Positions 50,588-62,922 are shown, counted from the first letter of the stretch. The stretch is 64,000 nucleotides of DNA from Cyanobacteria bacterium auto_48_18 (GCA_036170915.1 JAVHQC010000013.1:1-64000); one strand, 5' to 3'. Made by a program: numbers and translations. Notes: a model not told the origin generated them from the letters alone.

Positions 50588-51829
50588 TCAGTCAGCTGGG
50601 GGCGGATCAACAATTGCGCCAAGGAATAAAATCGCATTTGTTTTGTCGTCGCGGATAGCAACAACAAAAGGACGATCGCAAACCATCTCGAATGGTGGCT
50701 CAGGTTCGGCCGGCGCGCTGGTGGTGCTCATTTCTACGGCAGTCGCTGCGGCAGCCTCTGTGCCTTTTTCGTTGACTTCCAGATATGTTTTATGCAAAAC
50801 GCGCGAAATTATCGACGGCTCTTTGGTCATGTTTTTGAAGTCAGCGCAGGAGTCTTCGAAGGCGCAGGGCATGCCTGCTTCTTTAAGCACTTGACTTAAC
50901 TCGGTTTTGTATTCAACTTTAAATCGCGGTAGACCAAGATGTCCTTCTTTTTTGCCAAACTGCTCGCTCCACTGTTTCAGGTTTTCTTCAGTAAAGCTGC
51001 CTACCAACGCTTTGATGTCTGATTTCTGATCAGGCAGGAAGACGCACATCTGCAGGCGTTTATCTTTATAAGGCAACATAACCGCCTGGAAATTCTTATC
51101 CTTAAAATAATGCATTTTGTCAGTACGATTCATCATTTGAATTTGTTTTTTAGCGCCACCTGCGACGGTAAACTCGGCAGCTTGTGTTTGATCTTTGACA
51201 AATTCATCGAGCCACATGCCCTTAAAATACACTGCGTTGACCAAGTATAAAATGGCTGCTGGTGGCACTTGATCGATAATTGTAGGAATTTTTCCTTTAG
51301 TATTATCTTTGACCCAATTATTGATTTTATCGAGGGTGGTGGCATCAGCAAAATCAAGAGTTTCAAGTTTGGCACCAAAATATTTCTGGTTGGTGTCCAT
51401 AAACGACTTTTCAAATGCAAAGTCTTTATTGGCAAATAGGGCATTGGCCACAGTCAGCTCGCTCACCGGATTAACGTGCATCAAGCTTTTATAGAGGCTT
51501 GCATTTTGCTCGTTGACTGCATCGTCAGTCATGCCGCTGTAACCTAAAACTTCTTGCATTTGTGTTTTGGTTTTACCCACAGCGCCGTTGTAGACCATAG
51601 AGAGCGCAGTACTTACGCTGTATGGAGAAATGACCACATTTTTTTCAGGGGCTGCGGCGGCAAGTTTAAAGAAGTTAGAGGCAAATTTTTCAGACACTTT
51701 CATATTCGTTGTATCAGCTTCATTGCGTGATTCGTTTATCTGTGTTTGCCCTGGCGAAGCGCAGGCCACGAGACAAATAGATACCAGTGAAAGGGCCGCG
51801 GTGGTGCAGGCATACAAGAATGGACGCAC
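50588..51829 (-). CDS. Serpin family protease inhibitor, lipoprotein
   Basis: NVVISPYS, INNWV...T.GKI, NAVYFKG.W, EKGTEAAAAT hinge, DRPF...ILFLG; lipobox LVAC. Confidence 0.96.
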   Translation of the reverse strand: MRPFLYACTTAALSLVSICLVACASPGQTQINESRNEADTTNMKVSEKFASNFFKLAAAAPEKNVVISPYSVSTALSMVYNGAVGKTKTQMQEVLGYSGMTDDAVNEQNASLYKSLMHVNPVSELTVANALFANKDFAFEKSFMDTNQKYFGAKLETLDFADATTLDKINNWVKDNTKGKIPTIIDQVPPAAILYLVNAVYFKGMWLDEFVKDQTQAAEFTVAGGAKKQIQMMNRTDKMHYFKDKNFQAVMLPYKDKRLQMCVFLPDQKSDIKALVGSFTEENLKQWSEQFGKKEGHLGLPRFKVEYKTELSQVLKEAGMPCAFEDSCADFKNMTKEPSIISRVLHKTYLEVNEKGTEAAAATAVEMSTTSAPAEPEPPFEMVCDRPFVVAIRDDKTNAILFLGAIVDPPPAD

Positions 51830-52703: not shown

Positions 52704-53774
52704 TCAAACGCGCATGCGTTCTTTTTCTTTTGCTTCCTGGTGAGCAATGGCGTTGTGTTTCTCTCTGGCAATCATAGCCAGGAAAGTATGTCTGAATCTG
52801 TAAATCAGAGCGATGGCAACAATGATTCCAACAATGACAGCGCAGATAGAGCCTAGTGTCACCACCACCACTGCCACCAGCAGTTTATTTAGAACAGTAA
52901 GTTCGTCGCGCACTGCACCGAGCGGCTGTGAAACAGCATTCATCGGCACATGCAGCGATTTAATTTCGGCACTGAGCTCGTCGAGCTGGTCGTGCATTTG
53001 CACTACTTTGTGCTCTACAGTGGTCATTTTTGCAGTAACACTGGCAACTGAATTTTCTACGCCCGAAAGGGGTTTAGCCACAGCCATCATCGGAGCCTTT
53101 AGCTCATCTAGTGGTTTACGCAGTTCCTGCATTTGCATGGTTACTGAGCGTACGTCATCGCGAATGCCGGAGACCTTTTGCAGGTCTACACGTATTTTTG
53201 ATATTTCTTTCAGTTGAGTGTGAACGCCCAGTACTGCCGGCGAAATTTCACTGACTTTGTTCAAATCGGTAGAAAGCGTGTTCAAATTGTTATTGAGACC
53301 GCTAAGCACGCCAGACATATTGGCGATGCTGCTTTCAACGCCTTGCATGCGCTTTTCCATGCTGGCAAATGCCGGTTGAAGGTTATTCATTGGCTTTTGC
53401 AGAGATACTATCTGGGTTTGCAGGTCAGAAGCTTCTTTCCTCAGCTTCCAAATCGGGCGAGTAATTCTTTTAATGGGATGAAAACCAGTAAGGGGTTTAT
53501 CCCAATCTTTCATTCTCTTAGCCAGGTCAGCCGCCGCCTTTGCTTCTTTCTTTGTGGCAGTCACGGACCCTTGAATCGGCTTAGTTGTCCCGTCAGCGGC
53601 CGGTATCGCAGCATTTGACTGTACCTCTGCCGTTGAACCAACTGCACTAGCTTGAGCCGCGGGAGCAATAGTGGGCGATGTGGTACTGGCTGGTTCGGGA
53701 GTTTGAGCCTGTGCGGCGGCCACTGCAAGAACTAGTGTAAGGCTGAGAACACTGACTTTTCTGGCAAAGAACAT
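52704..53774 (-). CDS. Secreted coiled-coil protein with C-terminal TM anchor
   Basis: Signal peptide, about 200 aa of heptad repeats with periodic Pro, long hydrophobic C-terminal helix. Confidence 0.75.
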   Translation of the reverse strand: MFFARKVSVLSLTLVLAVAAAQAQTPEPASTTSPTIAPAAQASAVGSTAEVQSNAAIPAADGTTKPIQGSVTATKKEAKAAADLAKRMKDWDKPLTGFHPIKRITRPIWKLRKEASDLQTQIVSLQKPMNNLQPAFASMEKRMQGVESSIANMSGVLSGLNNNLNTLSTDLNKVSEISPAVLGVHTQLKEISKIRVDLQKVSGIRDDVRSVTMQMQELRKPLDELKAPMMAVAKPLSGVENSVASVTAKMTTVEHKVVQMHDQLDELSAEIKSLHVPMNAVSQPLGAVRDELTVLNKLLVAVVVVTLGSICAVIVGIIVAIALIYRFRHTFLAMIAREKHNAIAHQEAKEKERMRV

Positions 53775-54013
53775 GACCACCTCGAACCCCTACCGTTTAA
53801 TCTTATCCTGATTAGACACCAGCTAGCTAGAATTTAGGACTATTAATGGCAGATGACAAGCCTTTTTTAACCTCGCCGGTGCTAATTACTGCGTCAGGTC
53901 CCAGTGCTGCCAACATACAGCCTGCGAACTTTTTTAAATGATAGACGTCTCTAAATCTTACAATTGCTGACCAGTAAGGATCTGCCCATGTTTTTAGCAT
54001 TAGTAATCAATCG

Positions 54014-55847: not shown

Positions 55848-57212
55848 TTAGACGAGCACCGGCACCATGGTGTCGCTGACTTGAAACTGTTCTTCTTCTG
55901 TGGAGCCTTTTAAAGCACCGGTTGAAGCTTTGCCACCTGATACCGCCATTAGTACCTGGTCAAAGTAGCCGGTACCAACTTCACGCTGGTGACGAACAGC
56001 TGTATAGCCGAGGTCTTCGCACGCAAATTCTTCTTCTTGCAAGCGCACATAGGCTGTCATTCCCTCACGAGCAAAGCCATGTCCTAGTTTGAAGGCGCTC
56101 ATGTTGGTGGCATGCCAGCCTGCCAGTGTGATGAACTGATAGGCGTAGCCTAATTCTCCTAAAGTCTCATTGAATCTGGCAATGGTTTTGTCGTCCAGAT
56201 ATTGTTTCCAATTGAATGATGGTGAGCAGTTATAGGCAAGCAGTTTGCCTGGGAATTTTGCGTGAATGGCAGCAGCAAATACTCTTGCTTCTTCCAGATC
56301 TGGTTTGGAAGTTTCATACCAGATTACGTCAGCATATGGTGCATAGGCAAGCCCGCGTGCGATTACAGGTTCGATTCCGTCTTGCACTTCAAAATATCCT
56401 TCCACAGTGCGCTCTCCTTTGATGAAGGGCCTGTCAGCTGGGTCAATATCAGAAGTGAGCAGAGTGGCCGCATGAGCGTCAGTGCGAGCGACAATAATTG
56501 TAGGCACGTCTAGTACGTCAGATGCCAGCCTTGCAGCAGTTAGTGTGCGAATAAACTGTGCGGTTGGCACCAGTACTTTTCCGCCCAGGTGACCGCACTT
56601 CTTTTCTGAGGCTAATTGATCTTCGAAGTGTACGCCGCTAGCGCCTGCCTCGATCATGCTTTTCATCAGTTCAAATGCATGCACAGGGCCACCAAATCCG
56701 GCCTCTGCATCAGCCATAATTGGAACATACCAGTTGATATCGCTTTTGCCTTCGCTGACGTCGATTTGGTCAGCGCGCATCAAAGCGTTGTTAAGGCGCT
56801 TGACCAGTTCAGGAGCACTGTTCGATGGGTAAAGACTTTGATCAGGATAGGTCTGTTTAGATGAATTGGCATCAGCAGCCACTTGCCAGCCGCTCAAATA
56901 AATTGATTTAAGACCTGAGCGCACCATTTGCACTGCTTGTGAGCCATTCATGGCACCTAGTGCGACCGTGTAGGGCACGCTATTAAGTGTGTTCCAGAAG
57001 CGCTCAGCACCTAGCTTCGCAAGCGTGAACTCAACTTTTACAGAAGTGCGCAGGCGCAAAACATCTGCTGCCGTGTAGTCTCTTTTAATGCCTCGCCATC
57101 TTGAATCTTCGGCCCATGACCAGGTAAGTTTTTCTGCTGCTTCAGAATTATTTGCGCTAAATTGTGATTCTAGATTGGCCAGTGGTGCAGATTGCGAATG
57201 GTCCGGTTGCAT
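55848..57212 (-). CDS. aceA: Isocitrate lyase
   Basis: [58 protein letters not shown]. Confidence 0.98.
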
Positions 57213-57217
57213 AGACG

Positions 57218-58834
57218 TTAACCCCTTTGTAGATGTGTGTAGGCTGGAATGGTCAAAAATTCGATAAATTCTTCGCTTAAGACAAGCTGATCTAAAATTT
57301 CAGCGGCTTCAGCAAAGCGATTACCTTCAATATTTGGATATTGCGCGAGCATGGTGTCACGCAGCTTTTTGTACAGATCGGTGGTCACTATTTCACCACT
57401 GGCGGTTTTTGTTCCGCTGTGAATCCACTGCCAGATTTGTGCCCTTGCTATTTCAGCAGTGGCGGCATCTTCCATCAAGTTGTGAATAGCGGCAGCGCCT
57501 ACGCCTCTGAGCCATGACTCGATGTATTGCAAAGCAACGTCGACATTACCAGAGACACCAGCAATGGTGACCCCGGCGTCTATTTTTGTATTGAGCAGTT
57601 GGGTGGCGGTGACTCTCACTTCTTCTCGTAAAACATTTTTTTGATTAGCATTGCTGCCAAGCTTTGCGTCAAATATTTCTTTTGCCACTGCCACTAAATC
57701 TGGATGTGCAACCCAGGTGCCGTCAAAACCAAAACCGGCCTCTCTTTCTTTGTCTTCGCGCACTTTGGCAAAAGCAATTTCATTGACCTTTGAGTCTTTG
57801 CGACTGGGAATAAATGCGGCCATGCCACCGATGGCGTGTGCTCCACGCTTGTGGCAGGTCTTAACTAAAAGTTCGGCGTAAGCGCGCATAAAGGGCACTG
57901 CCATAGTTACTTGCACTCGGTCAGGCAAAGTAAATTGGCTGTGCTTACTGCATTTTTTGATCAGGCTGAAAATATAATCCCAGCGACCAGCATTGAGGCC
58001 GGCCATGTGCTCTTTCAATTCAAATAATATCTCTTCCATTTCAAATGCAGCAAGAATAGTCTCAATCAAAACGGTGGCACGAATGGTGCCGCGAGGTATC
58101 GCCAGAGCATCTTGTGCAAAATTGAAAACATCATTCCAGAGTCGTGCCTCTAGATGGCTTTCTAATTTTGGCAGGTAAAAATAAGGAGCCGACTGCAGTG
58201 CCAGAAGTGTTTTAGCGTTATGGAAGAAATACAATCCAAAATCAAAAAGCGACGCGGCCATTGGCTCACCGTCAACGAGAAAATTAGCTTCTTGCAGATG
58301 CCAGCCGCGCGGTCTGACTACGAGAGTAGCCAATTGACTGCGCTCTTTGAGAGCATAACTTTTTTCACCACTTTCAAATGAAAGCGTGCCCGCTACTGCC
58401 TCGATTAGGTTTAGCTGGCCGCAAACTACATTGGCCCAGGTGGGAGAGAGAGAATCTTCTAGATCAGCCATGAACACTTTTGCGCCTGAGTTCAATGCGT
58501 TGATCATCATCTTACGTTCCGCCGGCCCAGTGATTTCCACCCTCCGGTCATTGAGATCAGCCGGGGCCGAAGCCACTTGCCACTGGCCGTTGCGAACGGC
58601 AGTTGTGCTTTCGAGAAAATCTGGCAGTATGCCGTTGTCGATGTCTTTTTGCCGAGCAACGCGGTCAGCACGCAATTTCACTATATAAGGACTGAACTGC
58701 TGATGCAGGGAGTTGAGAAAAGCCCTGGCCTCGGCGGTTAAAACTTGCTCTGTAGCTCGCTCTAGATCGCTATTTGGGTCTAGCACAGTCAATTTCTCCC
58801 CGTTAGTTATAGAAGCAATCGTCGAAGCAATCAT
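57218..58834 (-). CDS. aceB: Malate synthase A
   Basis: [56 protein letters not shown]. Confidence 0.98.
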
Positions 58835-58869
58835 TGAAGCACCCTGTTGTCTATCGGCCACAGCTATTA

Positions 58870-58972
58870 TATTGATATATTGATTGAGAATAATCAATAC
58901 ATCAATAAGTTAATAATTTCAGCAGGTGATTTGCGCCTATTGATTGATATATTGATTACATGGTCAATAATT
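58870..58972. promoter_or_regulatory. Operator-like ATTGAT repeat array between divergent aceB and citrate synthase
   Basis: TATTGATATATTGATT-gagaat-AATCAATACATCAATA (15/16 inverted repeat, 58870-58907); exact second copy of ATTGATATATTGATT at 58943-58957 with partial mirror GTCAATA. Confidence 0.75.
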
Positions 58973-58994
58973 AAAATCTCAAGGGGTTTGAATC

Positions 58995-60125
58995 ATGGCA
59001 GTGGCAATGAAAACAGAAGCGGGTTTAGATGGAATTGTGGTTGCCGATACTCAAATTTCTGAGGTCGACGGTGAGCGCGGAAGGCTGATTATCAGAGGGC
59101 GCAATGCTGAAAAGCTGGCTTTTGAATCGTCGTTTGAAGACACCTGCCGCTTGCTCTGGTCAGGTCTGATACCAGGCGAAATTACCGCCCGCGATTTGAA
59201 GGATCACTTTTACACCGGTCGCAAAGAAGCATTTGATCTCGTGCAAGAAAATCTGACGCTTTTTCGCCGTAACGAACCGATGGAGGCGCTGCGCACCGCT
59301 ACCAGTTTGCTCAGCGGCGGCACCGAGCGCGATTTGCTCGCCTACACCAAAATCGCAGCAGCAGTGGGCGTATTTGCTGCCAGCTGGTCAAGAGTGCAAC
59401 AGCGTCTAGCACCACTGGCACCTGATGCCAATTTGAGCCATGCAGCCGACTTGTTGCGCATGGTCACCGACCGCATGCCCACAGCCGAAGAGGCCGCTGC
59501 CCTCGACGTTTATTTGACCACAGTTTCAGACCACGGCATGAACGCATCTACTTTTACGGCCAGAGTGGTAGCCTCTACCGAGTCTGACAATGTCAGCTGT
59601 GTAGTTTCAGCTATTGGCGCCCTCAAAGGGCCGCTGCATGGCGGCGCGCCTGGCCCCGTGCTCGAGATGCTAAGCGCTATTGGCGCTCCTGAAAACGCCG
59701 AAGCCTGGCTGCGCCGCGAACTTACAGCCGGCAGACGCATTATGGGCATGGGCCACCGCATTTATAAAGTGCGTGACCCCAGAGCCGCCATTTTTGAGAA
59801 AGCCATCGGCCGTTTGGAAGAGGCCCACACCCACGCCGGCACGAAAAATTCCAACCAAAATCTCAGTCGCCTCCCGCTAGCCCGTGCCGTTGAGCGCCAG
59901 GCAGAGCAGATTCTGGCTGAATTGCATCCTGAAAAGCCACTAAAGGCGAATGTTGAATTTTACACAGCCGTGCTGCTTGATTCGCTGCAAATTCCCCACC
60001 AATTGTTCTCATCGATGTTCGCCGCAGGCCGGGTTGGTGGGTGGCTGGCGCACCTTGCCGAACAACGGGCGCTTGGTCGCTTGATTCGCCCTGCTTCCAG
60101 GTACACTGGTACTCTGGAAGACTAG
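58995..60125 (+). CDS. Citrate synthase / 2-methylcitrate synthase family enzyme
   Basis: GLDGIV, DHGMNASTF, GPLHGGA, MGMGHRIYKVRDPR, NVEFY, RP...Y.G. Confidence 0.93.
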   Translation: MAVAMKTEAGLDGIVVADTQISEVDGERGRLIIRGRNAEKLAFESSFEDTCRLLWSGLIPGEITARDLKDHFYTGRKEAFDLVQENLTLFRRNEPMEALRTATSLLSGGTERDLLAYTKIAAAVGVFAASWSRVQQRLAPLAPDANLSHAADLLRMVTDRMPTAEEAAALDVYLTTVSDHGMNASTFTARVVASTESDNVSCVVSAIGALKGPLHGGAPGPVLEMLSAIGAPENAEAWLRRELTAGRRIMGMGHRIYKVRDPRAAIFEKAIGRLEEAHTHAGTKNSNQNLSRLPLARAVERQAEQILAELHPEKPLKANVEFYTAVLLDSLQIPHQLFSSMFAAGRVGGWLAHLAEQRALGRLIRPASRYTGTLED

Positions 60126-60136
60126 GAGCGCACTTT

Positions 60137-61384
60137 ATGGTGGAATCTGGCGATTTGCCCGGGGCCGAGGACAAGCTTTTGACGGGCTCGCAGGCCGCTG
60201 AGTTTCTTGGTGTCAAGTCGGCAACGCTTTATGCTTACGCCAGTCGTGGGCAAATCGTCAGTATGCCCTCCGAGAACGCACGCGAGCGCTGTTATCGTTT
60301 GAGCGACTTGATTAAGTTGCGGCAATCTGCGCGCGGCATCAAGAGCGCCAAGGAGACCGACGCGCCGGTATGGACAGGCCCGGTAGTTAAATCTTCCATT
60401 ACTGAGATTCGCGACGACGGCCACCGCTATCGAGGTCAGAGCGCCATTCAACTGGCTACGGGTAATACGACTTTTGAGCAAGTGGCAGAACTTTTGTGGG
60501 ACACCGATATCGCCAGTCAGTCTGCCTGGAAAAACACAAAACCTTTAAACATTCCGCGGCAGATGAAATCGATTGCCACTACAGATGGTGACTTGCTCGA
60601 TGTGCTTAAAGTGCTGTTAGCATTTATTGAATTGCAAGATCCGCTTTCGCGCCAGTTGCTTACCGTCGATATTCTTGACACAGCCAGACGATTGATTGTC
60701 ACCATGGCTTTAGCACCTGGTCTTGCCGCTGGAAAGAATAAGTATATTGATGGGCCGTTTCCATTAGCGCAAACTTTACTATCAGGTTTGAGCGAGAAAA
60801 ATTCGGCTGAGCATGCGCGCGCAATCAATTGCGCACTGGTTTTGTGCGCCGATCACGAACTCAATGCATCGGCTCTGGCAGCGCGTGTCGCCGCGTCATG
60901 CGATGCATCGCTTTATTCTTGTTTGCTAAGTGCATTGGGAACATTTAGCGGCGTTCTACACGGTTCAGCCAGCAGGCGTGCAGAAGATATTGTTAGCAGC
61001 AGTTTGCAGTATAAAAATACACAGGCATGGTTGAAAGAATATTTACGCCAGAACGGCCGCATACCAGGTTTTGGCATGGAGATATACAGTGCTGGCGATC
61101 CTCGTGCCCGGCTTTTGTTGACAGTGGCACAGAATATTTCGGCCAAGAATAAACACTTAAATAGACTTTTGGAAATCGTAGAATCGGTGCGCGAGCAGTT
61201 AGGTGAAGAACCAAATTTAGACATTGGTCTTGTGGCTATTTCGTATGCACTGGCTCTGCCAGCCGGTTCAGGCTCGACCATATTCGCCATCAGTCGCACC
61301 GCCGGATGGATTGCGCATGCAATCGAGCAACGTACATTTGGTGGCGTTATACGACCACGGGCAAAATACATCGGCAAGCTCTAG
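60137..61384 (+). CDS. HTH (MerR/excisionase-like) - citrate-synthase-like fusion protein
   Basis: LTGSQAAEFLGVKSATLYAYASRG HTH; ADHELNAS, LHG, IPGFGMEIY (His absent), GDPRA, PNLD, RPRAKYIG. Confidence 0.9.
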   Translation: MVESGDLPGAEDKLLTGSQAAEFLGVKSATLYAYASRGQIVSMPSENARERCYRLSDLIKLRQSARGIKSAKETDAPVWTGPVVKSSITEIRDDGHRYRGQSAIQLATGNTTFEQVAELLWDTDIASQSAWKNTKPLNIPRQMKSIATTDGDLLDVLKVLLAFIELQDPLSRQLLTVDILDTARRLIVTMALAPGLAAGKNKYIDGPFPLAQTLLSGLSEKNSAEHARAINCALVLCADHELNASALAARVAASCDASLYSCLLSALGTFSGVLHGSASRRAEDIVSSSLQYKNTQAWLKEYLRQNGRIPGFGMEIYSAGDPRARLLLTVAQNISAKNKHLNRLLEIVESVREQLGEEPNLDIGLVAISYALALPAGSGSTIFAISRTAGWIAHAIEQRTFGGVIRPRAKYIGKL

Positions 61385-61587
61385 TTTAGTTTGTAAAGTA
61401 ACTCGCTTGCCGCATTTATAGATGTGAAGTAAAGCCTAACTATTTTTTTTGCACTTCACGACGTTTTCACATTGGACTCACAACTAATTCACGATGGGTG
61501 ATTAGAGTTGTGGCATTGAGATTGTTCGAGGCACGCCCTCGCAAAGAAATTTTGATCTCCAGGCCATTTGCATACACTAATGGAGTT

Positions 61588-62922
61588 ATGATCGTGTTCA
61601 ACAAAATTCAAACAGCGCAAATGTTCACACGCAGTTTACTTGGACTCTTTGTAGTCGTTGCTGCTGGTCTAGCGCTACCGACAGACGCCAGCGCTCGCGC
61701 ACTTTATGTATCACCTTCGGGAGACGGTACAACTGGTCAGAATTGGAAGACTGCCTGGAAAGACCCTGCTCAGATTGACTGGAAAGTAGTGGCAGCAGGA
61801 GATCAAATTTTAATTGACGGTGGCACTGCTGGTATCACCTACACTACTTCATTTACAGTGCCTGTGAGCAATATTGTCATCAGACAAGCTCCGGGGGCCG
61901 CGCATAACGGCACCGTCACTTTTACTGGATTCACAGGCCAATCAGCAGTACCGTTCGGCATAAAGTTTGTTGGTTCTAATGTTCATTTGGTGGCCAACAA
62001 GCGCGCTGGTATCAAATTGACGCGCTATGGGGCTCAGTGCCTGGATATTCAATCTAGCTACAATTCAGTTCGCAATGTTGAAATGTCTTACATCATGGGC
62101 TTCCCACCTTATCTTGGGGGACGCGTTGGTGGTGTCACATTTGGTGGTGCCAATAATCATTTCATTGCCTGTGACTTTCGTGACTGCACAGTTGGCGCAG
62201 TAGAGAGACCGCTGCCAGGCGTAGCGAACAGTACAGTATTTAATAACTGCACGTTTGGTGCCAATGGTTATGGTTTCTTCGGTAATTGCGGAGCAGGCAT
62301 TGTCGGCTCCAAAACAGCTGGTGGACCTGCAACCACCATTTTTGCCAATAAGTGTGTTTTTGGCCCTTATGTTGACTATGGCGTCGACGTGGCCAACGGC
62401 ACAACACGGCTGAGCAATAGTCTGTTTCTCGCTGCGCGTGTTTCTAACATTAAGGCGGCACCACCAGTGGGCTCTTCGGCAACTGTTACCGCCGTTAATT
62501 GCACGCTTTACGAGAAACGCTTAGACCCTCGCCAGCAAAGCGCATTTCAAGTGCCCGGCTACACGATTAGCGTCAATGCTAATGCCAAACTGAAAGTTAG
62601 AGATTCAATTGTTTGGGGCGGATTCGTCGATGTGCCGGCCATACAGGTAATTACGGGTGGTGGCAACGTGCAATTTGCCGTCAGTGGAAACACAATGGCG
62701 CTGGCACCAATTATGGTGGATCCTAATTTCGTTGATACAGCAACGCTCTCTGCTATGCAGGCCAAGTCGCAATTTATTCCACGCACTTTAACAAGCGCCA
62801 ACTTCTCGCCTGCTCCTGGTAGCCCTGCCACAGGCAAAGGATCGCCCTTTGTTCGAGTGTCGGATCTGGTTGCGCCTTATGGCCCAACCAGTGGATTGCC
62901 GAGTGCTATTGGCGGACCGTAA
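61588..62922 (+). CDS. Secreted right-handed beta-helix (pectin-lyase-like) protein
   Basis: Signal peptide; LYVSPSGDGTTG.NW.TAW, AGDQILIDGG, F.NC.F repeats, DPNF...PGSPA.G.G ending. Confidence 0.75.
   Translation: MIVFNKIQTAQMFTRSLLGLFVVVAAGLALPTDASARALYVSPSGDGTTGQNWKTAWKDPAQIDWKVVAAGDQILIDGGTAGITYTTSFTVPVSNIVIRQAPGAAHNGTVTFTGFTGQSAVPFGIKFVGSNVHLVANKRAGIKLTRYGAQCLDIQSSYNSVRNVEMSYIMGFPPYLGGRVGGVTFGGANNHFIACDFRDCTVGAVERPLPGVANSTVFNNCTFGANGYGFFGNCGAGIVGSKTAGGPATTIFANKCVFGPYVDYGVDVANGTTRLSNSLFLAARVSNIKAAPPVGSSATVTAVNCTLYEKRLDPRQQSAFQVPGYTISVNANAKLKVRDSIVWGGFVDVPAIQVITGGGNVQFAVSGNTMALAPIMVDPNFVDTATLSAMQAKSQFIPRTLTSANFSPAPGSPATGKGSPFVRVSDLVAPYGPTSGLPSAIGGP

Follow-up and report, generated by a model that had tools for sequence, protein, structure and literature searches.

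A candidate HTH-citrate-synthase regulator facing the glyoxylate-shunt genes in Obscuribacteraceae

We examined a stretch of 64,000 nucleotides (nt; hereafter the window) from Cyanobacteria bacterium auto_48_18 (GCA_036170915.1 JAVHQC010000013.1:1-64000), and within it a group of four genes (55848-61384) in which aceB and aceA, encoding the glyoxylate shunt, diverge from a citrate synthase gene that is followed on the same strand, after an 11-nt gap, by a gene joining a helix-turn-helix (HTH) domain to a second citrate-synthase domain (hereafter the fusion). This arrangement, described in an earlier note on the same DNA, was confirmed for all four genes by domain and family models. The source genome belongs to the Obscuribacteraceae (4.94 Mb, 86% complete), and the closest related loci carry the labels Ca. 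Melainabacteria or Obscuribacterales. The genes and the predicted control elements between them are as follows (aa, amino acids).

55848-57212, minus strand: aceA, isocitrate lyase, 454 aa (PRK15063, 729 bits against a cut-off of 562); predicted target
57218-58834, minus strand: aceB, malate synthase A, 538 aa from the ATG at 58834 (TIGR01344, 729 bits against 594.5)
58869-58897, minus strand: predicted aceBA promoter within operator 1, with -35 TTGATT (58897-58892), a 17-nt spacer and -10 CAATAT (58874-58869)
58870-58907, no strand: predicted operator 1, a nested palindrome of four TTGA[TC] half-sites, TTGAY-N3-TTGAY-N8-RTCAA-N3-RTCAA
58943-58968, no strand: predicted operator 2, TTGATATATTGAT-N6-GTCAA, which overlaps the promoter predicted for the citrate synthase-fusion operon
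58944-58971, plus strand: promoter predicted for the citrate synthase-fusion operon (TTGATA from 58944, 16 nt, AATAAT to 58971), the best consensus promoter of the region
58995-60125, plus strand: citrate synthase of the PRK12350 / Bacillus subtilis CitA type (359.5 bits against a cut-off of 332); predicted target
60137-61384, plus strand: HTH-citrate-synthase fusion, 415 aa (HTH_17 + Citrate_synt)

The 160-nt region between aceB and the citrate synthase gene contains an inverted repeat (58870-58885 / 58892-58907) whose 16-nt arms are 94% complementary, and a second copy of the repeat arm lies at 58943-58957. The start of aceB, predicted to be the first gene of an aceBA transcript, was picked by inspection; the longer start proposed by the open reading frame (ORF) finder is a TTG at 58897, inside the palindrome. 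In a genome-wide scan with a matrix built without the window, operator 1 was the top match at 49.2 bits, with the next independent site at 13.5 and operator 2 below 8 bits; no wider regulon was found in this genome, the top match being operator 1 alone. Second sites are present in relatives too. The 17-nt aceBA promoter is not among the hits of the consensus promoter scan and was deduced from site comparison, since among 37 distinct site sequences the pattern nAnnnT lies at 17 nt on the aceBA side in 36 and at 20 nt in 12, the window itself offering an alternative TATAAT 20 nt from the -35 box (58871-58866). Elsewhere in the genome, a separate conventional type II citrate synthase is encoded on contig C29 (TIGR01800, 526 bits against 421), and an acetyl-CoA (coenzyme A) synthetase scores above its cut-off. 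The earlier remark that no IclR- or RamB-type regulator lies nearby can be widened, as no match to IclR_C, ScfRs (RamB-type) or AceK was obtained anywhere in the 86%-complete genome, and IclR_C and ScfRs are also absent from the fusion.

The distribution of the palindrome follows that of the fusion. Among the related loci (the best 80 of 544; six of 81 loci without the N-terminal domain were left out of the motif counts), 24 of 25 Melainabacteria loci, the window being one of them, have the form TTGAY-N3-TTGAY-N8-RTCAA upstream, the sole miss being cut by a contig end; none of 145 stretches taken upstream of other ORFs has it. As the motif had been read off these same loci, whole genomes were tested for the pattern, which was present in 45 of 104 Obscuribacteraceae genomes (reversed control, 0/104). 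For the 97 Obscuribacteraceae genomes common to the site and fusion surveys, cross-counted by hand, the pattern occurs in 41 of the 42 with a full-length fusion as against 0 of the 55 without one. The single exception, G169 (G-, L- and C-numbers being our working labels for genomes, loci and contigs), has the earliest-branching copy of the fusion and a half-site. Four further pattern-positive genomes lie beyond the fusion survey: three have a fusion with an adjacent aceA, one of them (G556) apparently on the same contig as L007, and the fourth, G558, is cut by a contig end.

The survey of aceA linkage proposed in the earlier note was also run. In the 42 fusion genomes, counted by hand, aceA is divergent within ~3.2 kb in 32, lies on another contig in 6, lies far away on the same contig in 1 and was not found in 3, and the loci take four layouts, with aceBA or aceA alone and with or without the partner synthase. 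Site and fusion gene can also be far apart: in G088 a site with a third repeat stands upstream of aceBA (L182) with the fusion gene ~1 Mb away, both inner half-sites being perfect and no gene being served on the other side, and in G218 a site stands upstream of a lone aceA, the citrate synthase-fusion locus having its own copy. Conversely, with one mismatch allowed, no site was found at 13 other aceA loci (L189-L201; nine from fusion-less genomes and four second copies). This comparison makes it likely that aceBA is a target of the fusion rather than a mere neighbour. It likewise supports as likely the proposal of the earlier note that the fusion is a transcription factor; that it binds the predicted operators and controls these genes we hold to be very probable.

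A quite different explanation of the palindrome would be that it consists of two overlapping face-to-face promoters, or is the site of another regulator, with aceBA a passenger beside a self-contained citrate synthase-fusion cassette. The half-sites are indeed -35-like, the 17-nt promoter fits the aceBA side in 36 of 37 sequences and the other side in 17 of 37, and all of this belongs to one clade with one origin. We consider this explanation improbable, since the inner half-sites are perfect and accompanied by a third repeat in G088, where no gene lies on the other side, since the pattern is absent from the 55 fusion-less genomes and from the 13 other aceA loci, and since a second fusion copy of outgroup type in G298 (L083) carries an outgroup-type site within the same genome.

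Several loci encountered in these surveys are worth recording in their own right. The aceA of L182 (G088:C1:38016-39308) is 87% identical to that of the window as against 76-77% for others of its genus, and its aceBA was possibly transferred together with the operator; the fusion of the same genome (L085:6471-7712, flipped coordinates; G088:C1 near 1044304) lies downstream of unrelated genes, with a half-site only before its start. L184 (G178:C44:55000-63500) is an aceA locus without the operator that differs from its neighbours in having many long frames overlapping one another and an AceA of 70% identity; it may be foreign or mis-binned. Single frames of 1069-1074 aa encode malate synthase-isocitrate lyase fusions at L206:1289-4495(+) (G088:C5) and L207:2870-6091(-) (G220:C11), the malate synthase domain being N-terminal and the isocitrate lyase domain C-terminal; similar frames of 970-1100 aa occur in many Obscuribacteraceae genomes, and at L206 a citrate synthase gene lies just upstream and the operator is absent. 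The HTH-citrate-synthase fusion at L082:6342-8498(+) (G178) reaches 718 aa, with ~310 extra C-terminal residues without a Pfam match, and P0054 and P0055 are similar to it in length. In the window itself, other ORFs encode a 413-aa lipoprotein-like product with serpin-like motifs by inspection (50588-51829, minus strand), a 358-aa coiled-coil membrane-anchored protein whose coiled-coil matches are all sub-threshold (52704-53780, minus strand) and a 474-aa secreted-looking protein without a Pfam match (61498-62922, plus strand).

The fusion matches HTH_17 at residues 14-63 (E 1.5e-5; 25.6 bits, just below the 27-bit cut-off) and Citrate_synt (PF00285) at residues 82-408 (E 1.5e-60), the MerR model PF00376 scoring 16.5 bits against a cut-off of 28.2. 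The N-terminal MerR/excisionase-like HTH reported earlier is borne out by structural matches to BldC, SoxR and CueR: the modelled head (predicted local distance difference test, pLDDT, 88) is best matched by DNA-bound BldC and SoxR, with a template modelling (TM) score of ~0.7 (6ama, 6amk, 2zhh), and five positions of its recognition helix (T-Y-Y-SR) are invariant in 36 of 36 sequences. The full model (pLDDT 85) matches citrate synthases (Foldseek TM ~0.7). A MerR-type coiled coil is absent; the HTH is followed by a low-confidence linker (67-82, pLDDT<50) and then by the citrate-synthase body. Homodimer modelling, also suggested in the earlier note, gave a score of 0.81 against 0.01 for the best control, with runs agreeing in at least 67% of contacts and pLDDT of at least 82, and placed the arm 404-415 inside the interface; the pass mark is attained for 20 of 30 pairs with solved structures and for 1 of 23 single chains, and likeness to solved citrate-synthase dimers may explain the pass.

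The citrate-synthase motifs of the fusion are DH239, LHG274, GFGM311-314, DPR321, PNLD359 and IRPR405, as the earlier note had read them: GFGH is changed to GFGM, and DH, LHG, DPR and N.D are kept. For comparison across the family we use what we take to be the pig citrate synthase numbering, mapped by way of the motifs in the type II enzyme of this genome. In 72 full-length fusions (nine of 81 loci being left out of the residue counts for want of one) His238, Asn242, Asp327, Arg329, Arg401 and Arg421 are invariant, Asp375 is present in 71 and His274 in 70. The same holds broadly for 138 diverse representatives (150 at 50% identity minus 12 without the HTH motif), in which R329, R401 and D327 are found in all 138, H238 in 137, R421 in 135, D375 in 129 and H274 in 127. 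The window's fusion has His275 and Asp362, the His320 equivalent being Met314. According to the accessible text of 10.1101/2024.11.06.622199, these pocket residues contact oxaloacetate and loop 314-321 binds CoA. The basic CoA loop HRVYK is typically HPLYP in the family and MEIYS in the window's fusion (Glu315 and Ser318), the preceding GFG being kept; among the 138 representatives Lys is replaced by Pro in 117 and Arg by Pro in 80, and the Arg after His persists in 32. A pocket for oxaloacetate- or citrate-like ligands thus appears to be retained, as the pattern of conserved residues supports.

The GFGH histidine, which we take to be the residue substituted in Caulobacter CitA, is lost in all 24 Obscuribacterales fusions (Thr in 18, Ser in 4, Met in 1 and Gly in 1) and kept in 46 of 48 fusions outside the Obscuribacterales and in 124 of the 138 representatives. 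Substitution of the equivalent His abolished activity in Caulobacter CitA, as stated in the accessible text of 10.1101/799742. The earlier notion of a dead enzyme marked by GFGM can therefore apply to the Obscuribacterales alone and fails as a hallmark of the family. The fusion reaches no citrate-synthase equivalog cut-off, and we infer that it is catalytically inactive, because the His320 equivalent is lost and the CoA loop degenerate. Could it instead be a trigger enzyme, a DNA-binding protein that still works as a citrate or methylcitrate synthase? His274, Asp375 and all the substrate arginines are present, the GFGH His persists outside the clade, and members are named 'citrate synthase' in databases. 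This seems very improbable given the loss of the His from 24 of 24 aligned Obscuribacterales copies, the missed equivalog cut-offs and a precedent in Caulobacter crescentus, where CitB and CitC (CCNA_03757/03758) are encoded side by side and, in the accessible part of Berge et al. 2020 (PMC7083601), CitB complements an E. coli gltA mutant and CitC does not. Primers in that paper encode the N-termini MSDGLEGV, which is partner-like, and MTDWMD, which resembles HTH starts such as MDWIAAEDAL. We infer that CitC belongs to the fusion family, because its primer-encoded N-terminus fits and it adjoins citB, and the precedent is to be read with this in mind; the CitC N-terminus was not found among 120 relatives of L177, and a scan with the primers returned 31 unrelated loci.

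The earlier note left the ligand open between citrate, oxaloacetate and acyl-CoA. Sensing of acetyl- or propionyl-CoA, or of a ternary state of acyl-CoA plus oxaloacetate, would suit an acetate switch; the GFG loop, His274, Asp375 and the first Arg of IRPR are kept, some members face CoA-transferases, and this genome has an acetyl-CoA synthetase. Yet the basic CoA-loop residues are replaced family-wide, whereas the three carboxylate-binding arginines are near-invariant, and we regard an acyl-CoA signal as distinctly unlikely. The carboxylate half of the proposal fares better, and the conserved pocket tips the balance slightly towards a carboxylate ligand.

The partner citrate synthase has the motifs DH179, LHGG214, GMGHR251, DPR261 and NVEF319. 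DH, LHG and GHR are present as reported earlier, but 'NVE intact' does not hold, in that Glu replaces the catalytic Asp, which is the norm of this subfamily: Glu takes the place of Asp in 51 of 51 partner enzymes, the Arg421 equivalent is missing from 50 of 51, and His274 and His320 are intact. The best solved match is B. subtilis CitA (PDB 2c6x, E 5e-69), which shares the NVEFY (Glu for Asp) and RPSAQY features and likewise has no Arg421. The partner is probably active. At first glance the fusions, with Arg421 in 72 of 72 and Asp375 in 71 of 72, complement their adjacent synthases strikingly, as though the fusion supplied in trans, within a heterodimer, the Arg421 that its neighbour does not have. 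Such a heterodimer, raised as an option in the earlier note, is hardly to be expected: Glu for Asp and the missing Arg421 are traits of the partner subfamily, shown by B. subtilis CitA too, Caulobacter CitB complements gltA on its own (PMC7083601, accessible text), and in many relatives (L016-L022 and others) no partner synthase adjoins the fusion. Obligate pairing of the two proteins is improbable, since the fusion stays with aceA after partner loss and elsewhere faces unrelated enzymes.

Those enzymes are found in other phyla, where the fusion is widespread, in agreement with the earlier statement that such gene pairs occur in other bacteria. In most loci its back-to-back neighbour is a CitA-type synthase, in L063 and L135 a type I GltA, and in seven loci and on a Deinococcus plasmid a DRE-TIM acetyl-CoA condensing enzyme of unrelated fold. 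Partners of unrelated fold argue for metabolite sensing and not for partner binding. The DRE-TIM enzymes (L041, L049, L057, L066, L067, L070, L073, L153) form a Chloroflexota-centred subfamily behind the same operator, annotated as pyruvate carboxyltransferase or PMM (phosphinomethylmalic acid) synthase; at L070 a phosphoenolpyruvate carboxykinase gene comes after the fusion. Among 120 relatives, one is named citrate (Re)-synthase, and most of those with names are called '2-phosphinomethylmalic acid synthase' or 'isopropylmalate/homocitrate/citramalate synthase'. The DRE-TIM partner meets no NCBIfam cut-off and is a probable unrecognised Re-citrate synthase.

At the non-Melainabacteria loci the site takes a shorter form, TTGAY-N6-RTCAA in 39 of 50 and RTCAA-NN-TTGAY in 46 of 50 as against 0 of 604 control windows, with an N7 spacer in 16 of 25 Alphaproteobacteria loci. 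TAnnnT lies 17 nt from the left arm in 21 of 46 and in at most 5 at any other spacing, so that the left arm is apparently the -35 box of the target. The palindrome lies just upstream of the target -35 and covers the fusion's own -10 in 19 of 46, of which 12 have a start codon 6-7 nt later, an arrangement that suggests target activation combined with autorepression. Some fusions facing genes without an evident link to citrate have degenerate pockets. Three outlying copies may be noted separately: L083:5062-6354(-) (G298:C56), which is the second fusion of its genome and falls among non-Melainabacteria sequences, with a degenerate pocket, the outgroup-type N6 form of the site and, facing it, a gene for an AbrB (PF05145) membrane protein; L155:4088-5359(-), a second copy in Ktedonosporobacter rubrisoli with both pocket His replaced, divergent from a gene resembling a major facilitator superfamily transporter by inspection, for which a change of ligand is possible; and L154:2688-5242 on the Acidovorax plasmid pACP3.2, a long-branch fusion divergent from a Rieske dioxygenase operon.

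Taken together, and with a probability of roughly 0.7, we propose that the fusion is a one-component, carboxylate-sensing transcription factor for the divergent aceBA and citrate-synthase promoters. It would form a homodimer of the citrate-synthase type whose two winged-HTH heads bind operators 1 and 2 (58870-58907 and 58943-58968) through their TTGA[TC] palindromes, the bound dimers occluding both promoters and repressing aceBA and the citrate synthase gene. A Krebs-cycle carboxylate (oxaloacetate, citrate or a close analogue) in the retained pocket would change operator occupancy. Citrate synthase has an open/closed hinge, and the signal may pass through it; growth on acetate or fatty acids would be the physiological setting. 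Members of the family in other phyla would control the citrate-forming enzyme encoded back to back with them, the site lying immediately before that gene's -35 box and over the fusion's own -10; in one Obscuribacteraceae lineage the site would have been remodelled, the His lost and aceBA gained as a target.

Repression is the sign towards which we lean, modestly. The same regulator at the same site could be an activator, the ligand-bound dimer realigning TTGATT-20-TATAAT in the manner of MerR or recruiting polymerase. The HTH is MerR/BldC-like, TATAAT stands at 20 nt in the window and in 4 of 23 other loci compared, the 17-nt promoter, which by inspection matches the consensus at 7 of 12 positions, is weak, and in other phyla the palindrome is just upstream of the target -35. 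Set against this are the greater frequency of a -10-like hexamer at 17 nt (36/37) than at 20 nt (12/37), the fact that the site covers both promoter boxes, and the replacement of the MerR coiled-coil dimer by a citrate-synthase body on a flexible linker; activation therefore strikes us as unlikely, if a serious contender. As for the family as a whole, it is an even bet that these are multi-phylum, citrate-synthase-fold, carboxylate-sensing regulators that pair with any maker of citrate (CitA-, GltA- or Re-type), rewired once in Obscuribacteraceae, where the His was dropped, a new ligand possibly acquired, four half-sites formed and a shunt controller of neither IclR nor RamB type created.

A number of observations weigh against the proposal that the fusion is a carboxylate-sensing repressor of these genes. 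The 24 Obscuribacteraceae fusions form one long-stemmed clade (Shimodaira-Hasegawa-like approximate likelihood ratio test, 97) in a quick tree from which 20 near-duplicate loci had been removed, the careful search being unfinished, and because the fusions form one clade the co-occurrence counts have one origin and are not independent. His loss, operator change and aceBA linkage all map to this clade and are therefore one event by this comparison, and the separated sites of G088 and G218 could be recent relics. The motif was derived from the same loci later counted, the control windows were unmatched for A+T content, and part of the half-site conservation would be that of a promoter, because the half-site resembles a sigma-70 -35 box. 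The aceA of G178 has no site within one mismatch though the genome has a fusion, aceA occurs without a fusion in 10 Obscuribacteraceae genomes, and 3 fusion genomes gave no aceA match. In other phyla the motif core is missing at four loci (L036, L045, L058, L078), and members face genes for CoA-transferase III, DUF2332, a methyltransferase, EamA, AbrB and a Rieske dioxygenase. Within the protein, the HTH scores are modest (under the Pfam cut-off; Foldseek E 2.5e-3), the first IRPR Arg, which is a CoA-phosphate ligand in type II citrate synthases, is invariant (138/138), and Asp375 and His274 are mostly kept. The feature is nonetheless real as far as sequence comparison goes, and the case for it rests on comparison within one clade.

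What is new here is an aceBA regulon that includes cases of separated sites, a clade-specific loss of the His together with operator remodelling, and partners of unrelated fold. If the proposal is true, glyoxylate-shunt regulators would gain a new class and one-component regulators a new enzyme fold, and many proteins labelled 'citrate synthase' would be regulators, with consequences for metabolic reconstructions; paralogues that fail to complement, Caulobacter CitC among them, would find a possible explanation. The clade-specific His loss, operator change and gain of a target would offer a concise example of how a regulon is rewired, in relatives of cyanobacteria that do not photosynthesise, and the 38-bp site and its 415-aa protein make a candidate oxaloacetate or citrate biosensor.

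The earlier note knew of no characterised link between such fusions and aceBA, and neither a characterised HTH-citrate-synthase fusion nor an aceBA link turned up in the literature searched, most subscription journals lying outside its coverage. SCO5831/SCO5832 are called putative citrate synthases only in the accessible parts of PMC7324645, PMC9739823 and PMC12323332, and the accessible part of PMC7083601 states no function, HTH or aceBA link for CitC. The description of a 'new system' thus holds for the aceBA linkage, for which no characterisation was found, and less so for the rest, the fusion being widespread and enzyme-fold regulators a known kind. In the role predicted for it, placing the shunt under a central metabolite, the fusion would be like the known aceBA regulators IclR (E. 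coli), RamB/RamA and PrpR/PccR, to which it is unrelated in sequence. B. subtilis CitA, the closest solved relative of the partner, is regulated by a divergent LysR-type protein (CitR) and not by one of citrate-synthase fold. MerR proteins dimerise through a coiled coil, which the fusion does not have; BldC binds direct repeats head to tail, a mode that would suit the repeats of 8-bp period found here, but is without a sensor domain. The closest parallels in design are MocR/GabR, RpiR, ROK (NagC/Mlc) and SorC/DeoR, which combine an HTH with an enzyme-derived ligand-sensing fold, act on local divergent targets and regulate themselves. To our knowledge none of these uses the citrate-synthase fold, and their folds and HTH types differ; nevertheless, with a DNA-binding domain mounted on an enzyme-derived body and, by comparison among relatives, a conserved site at its own and its target promoters, the fusion resembles regulators of the MocR kind.

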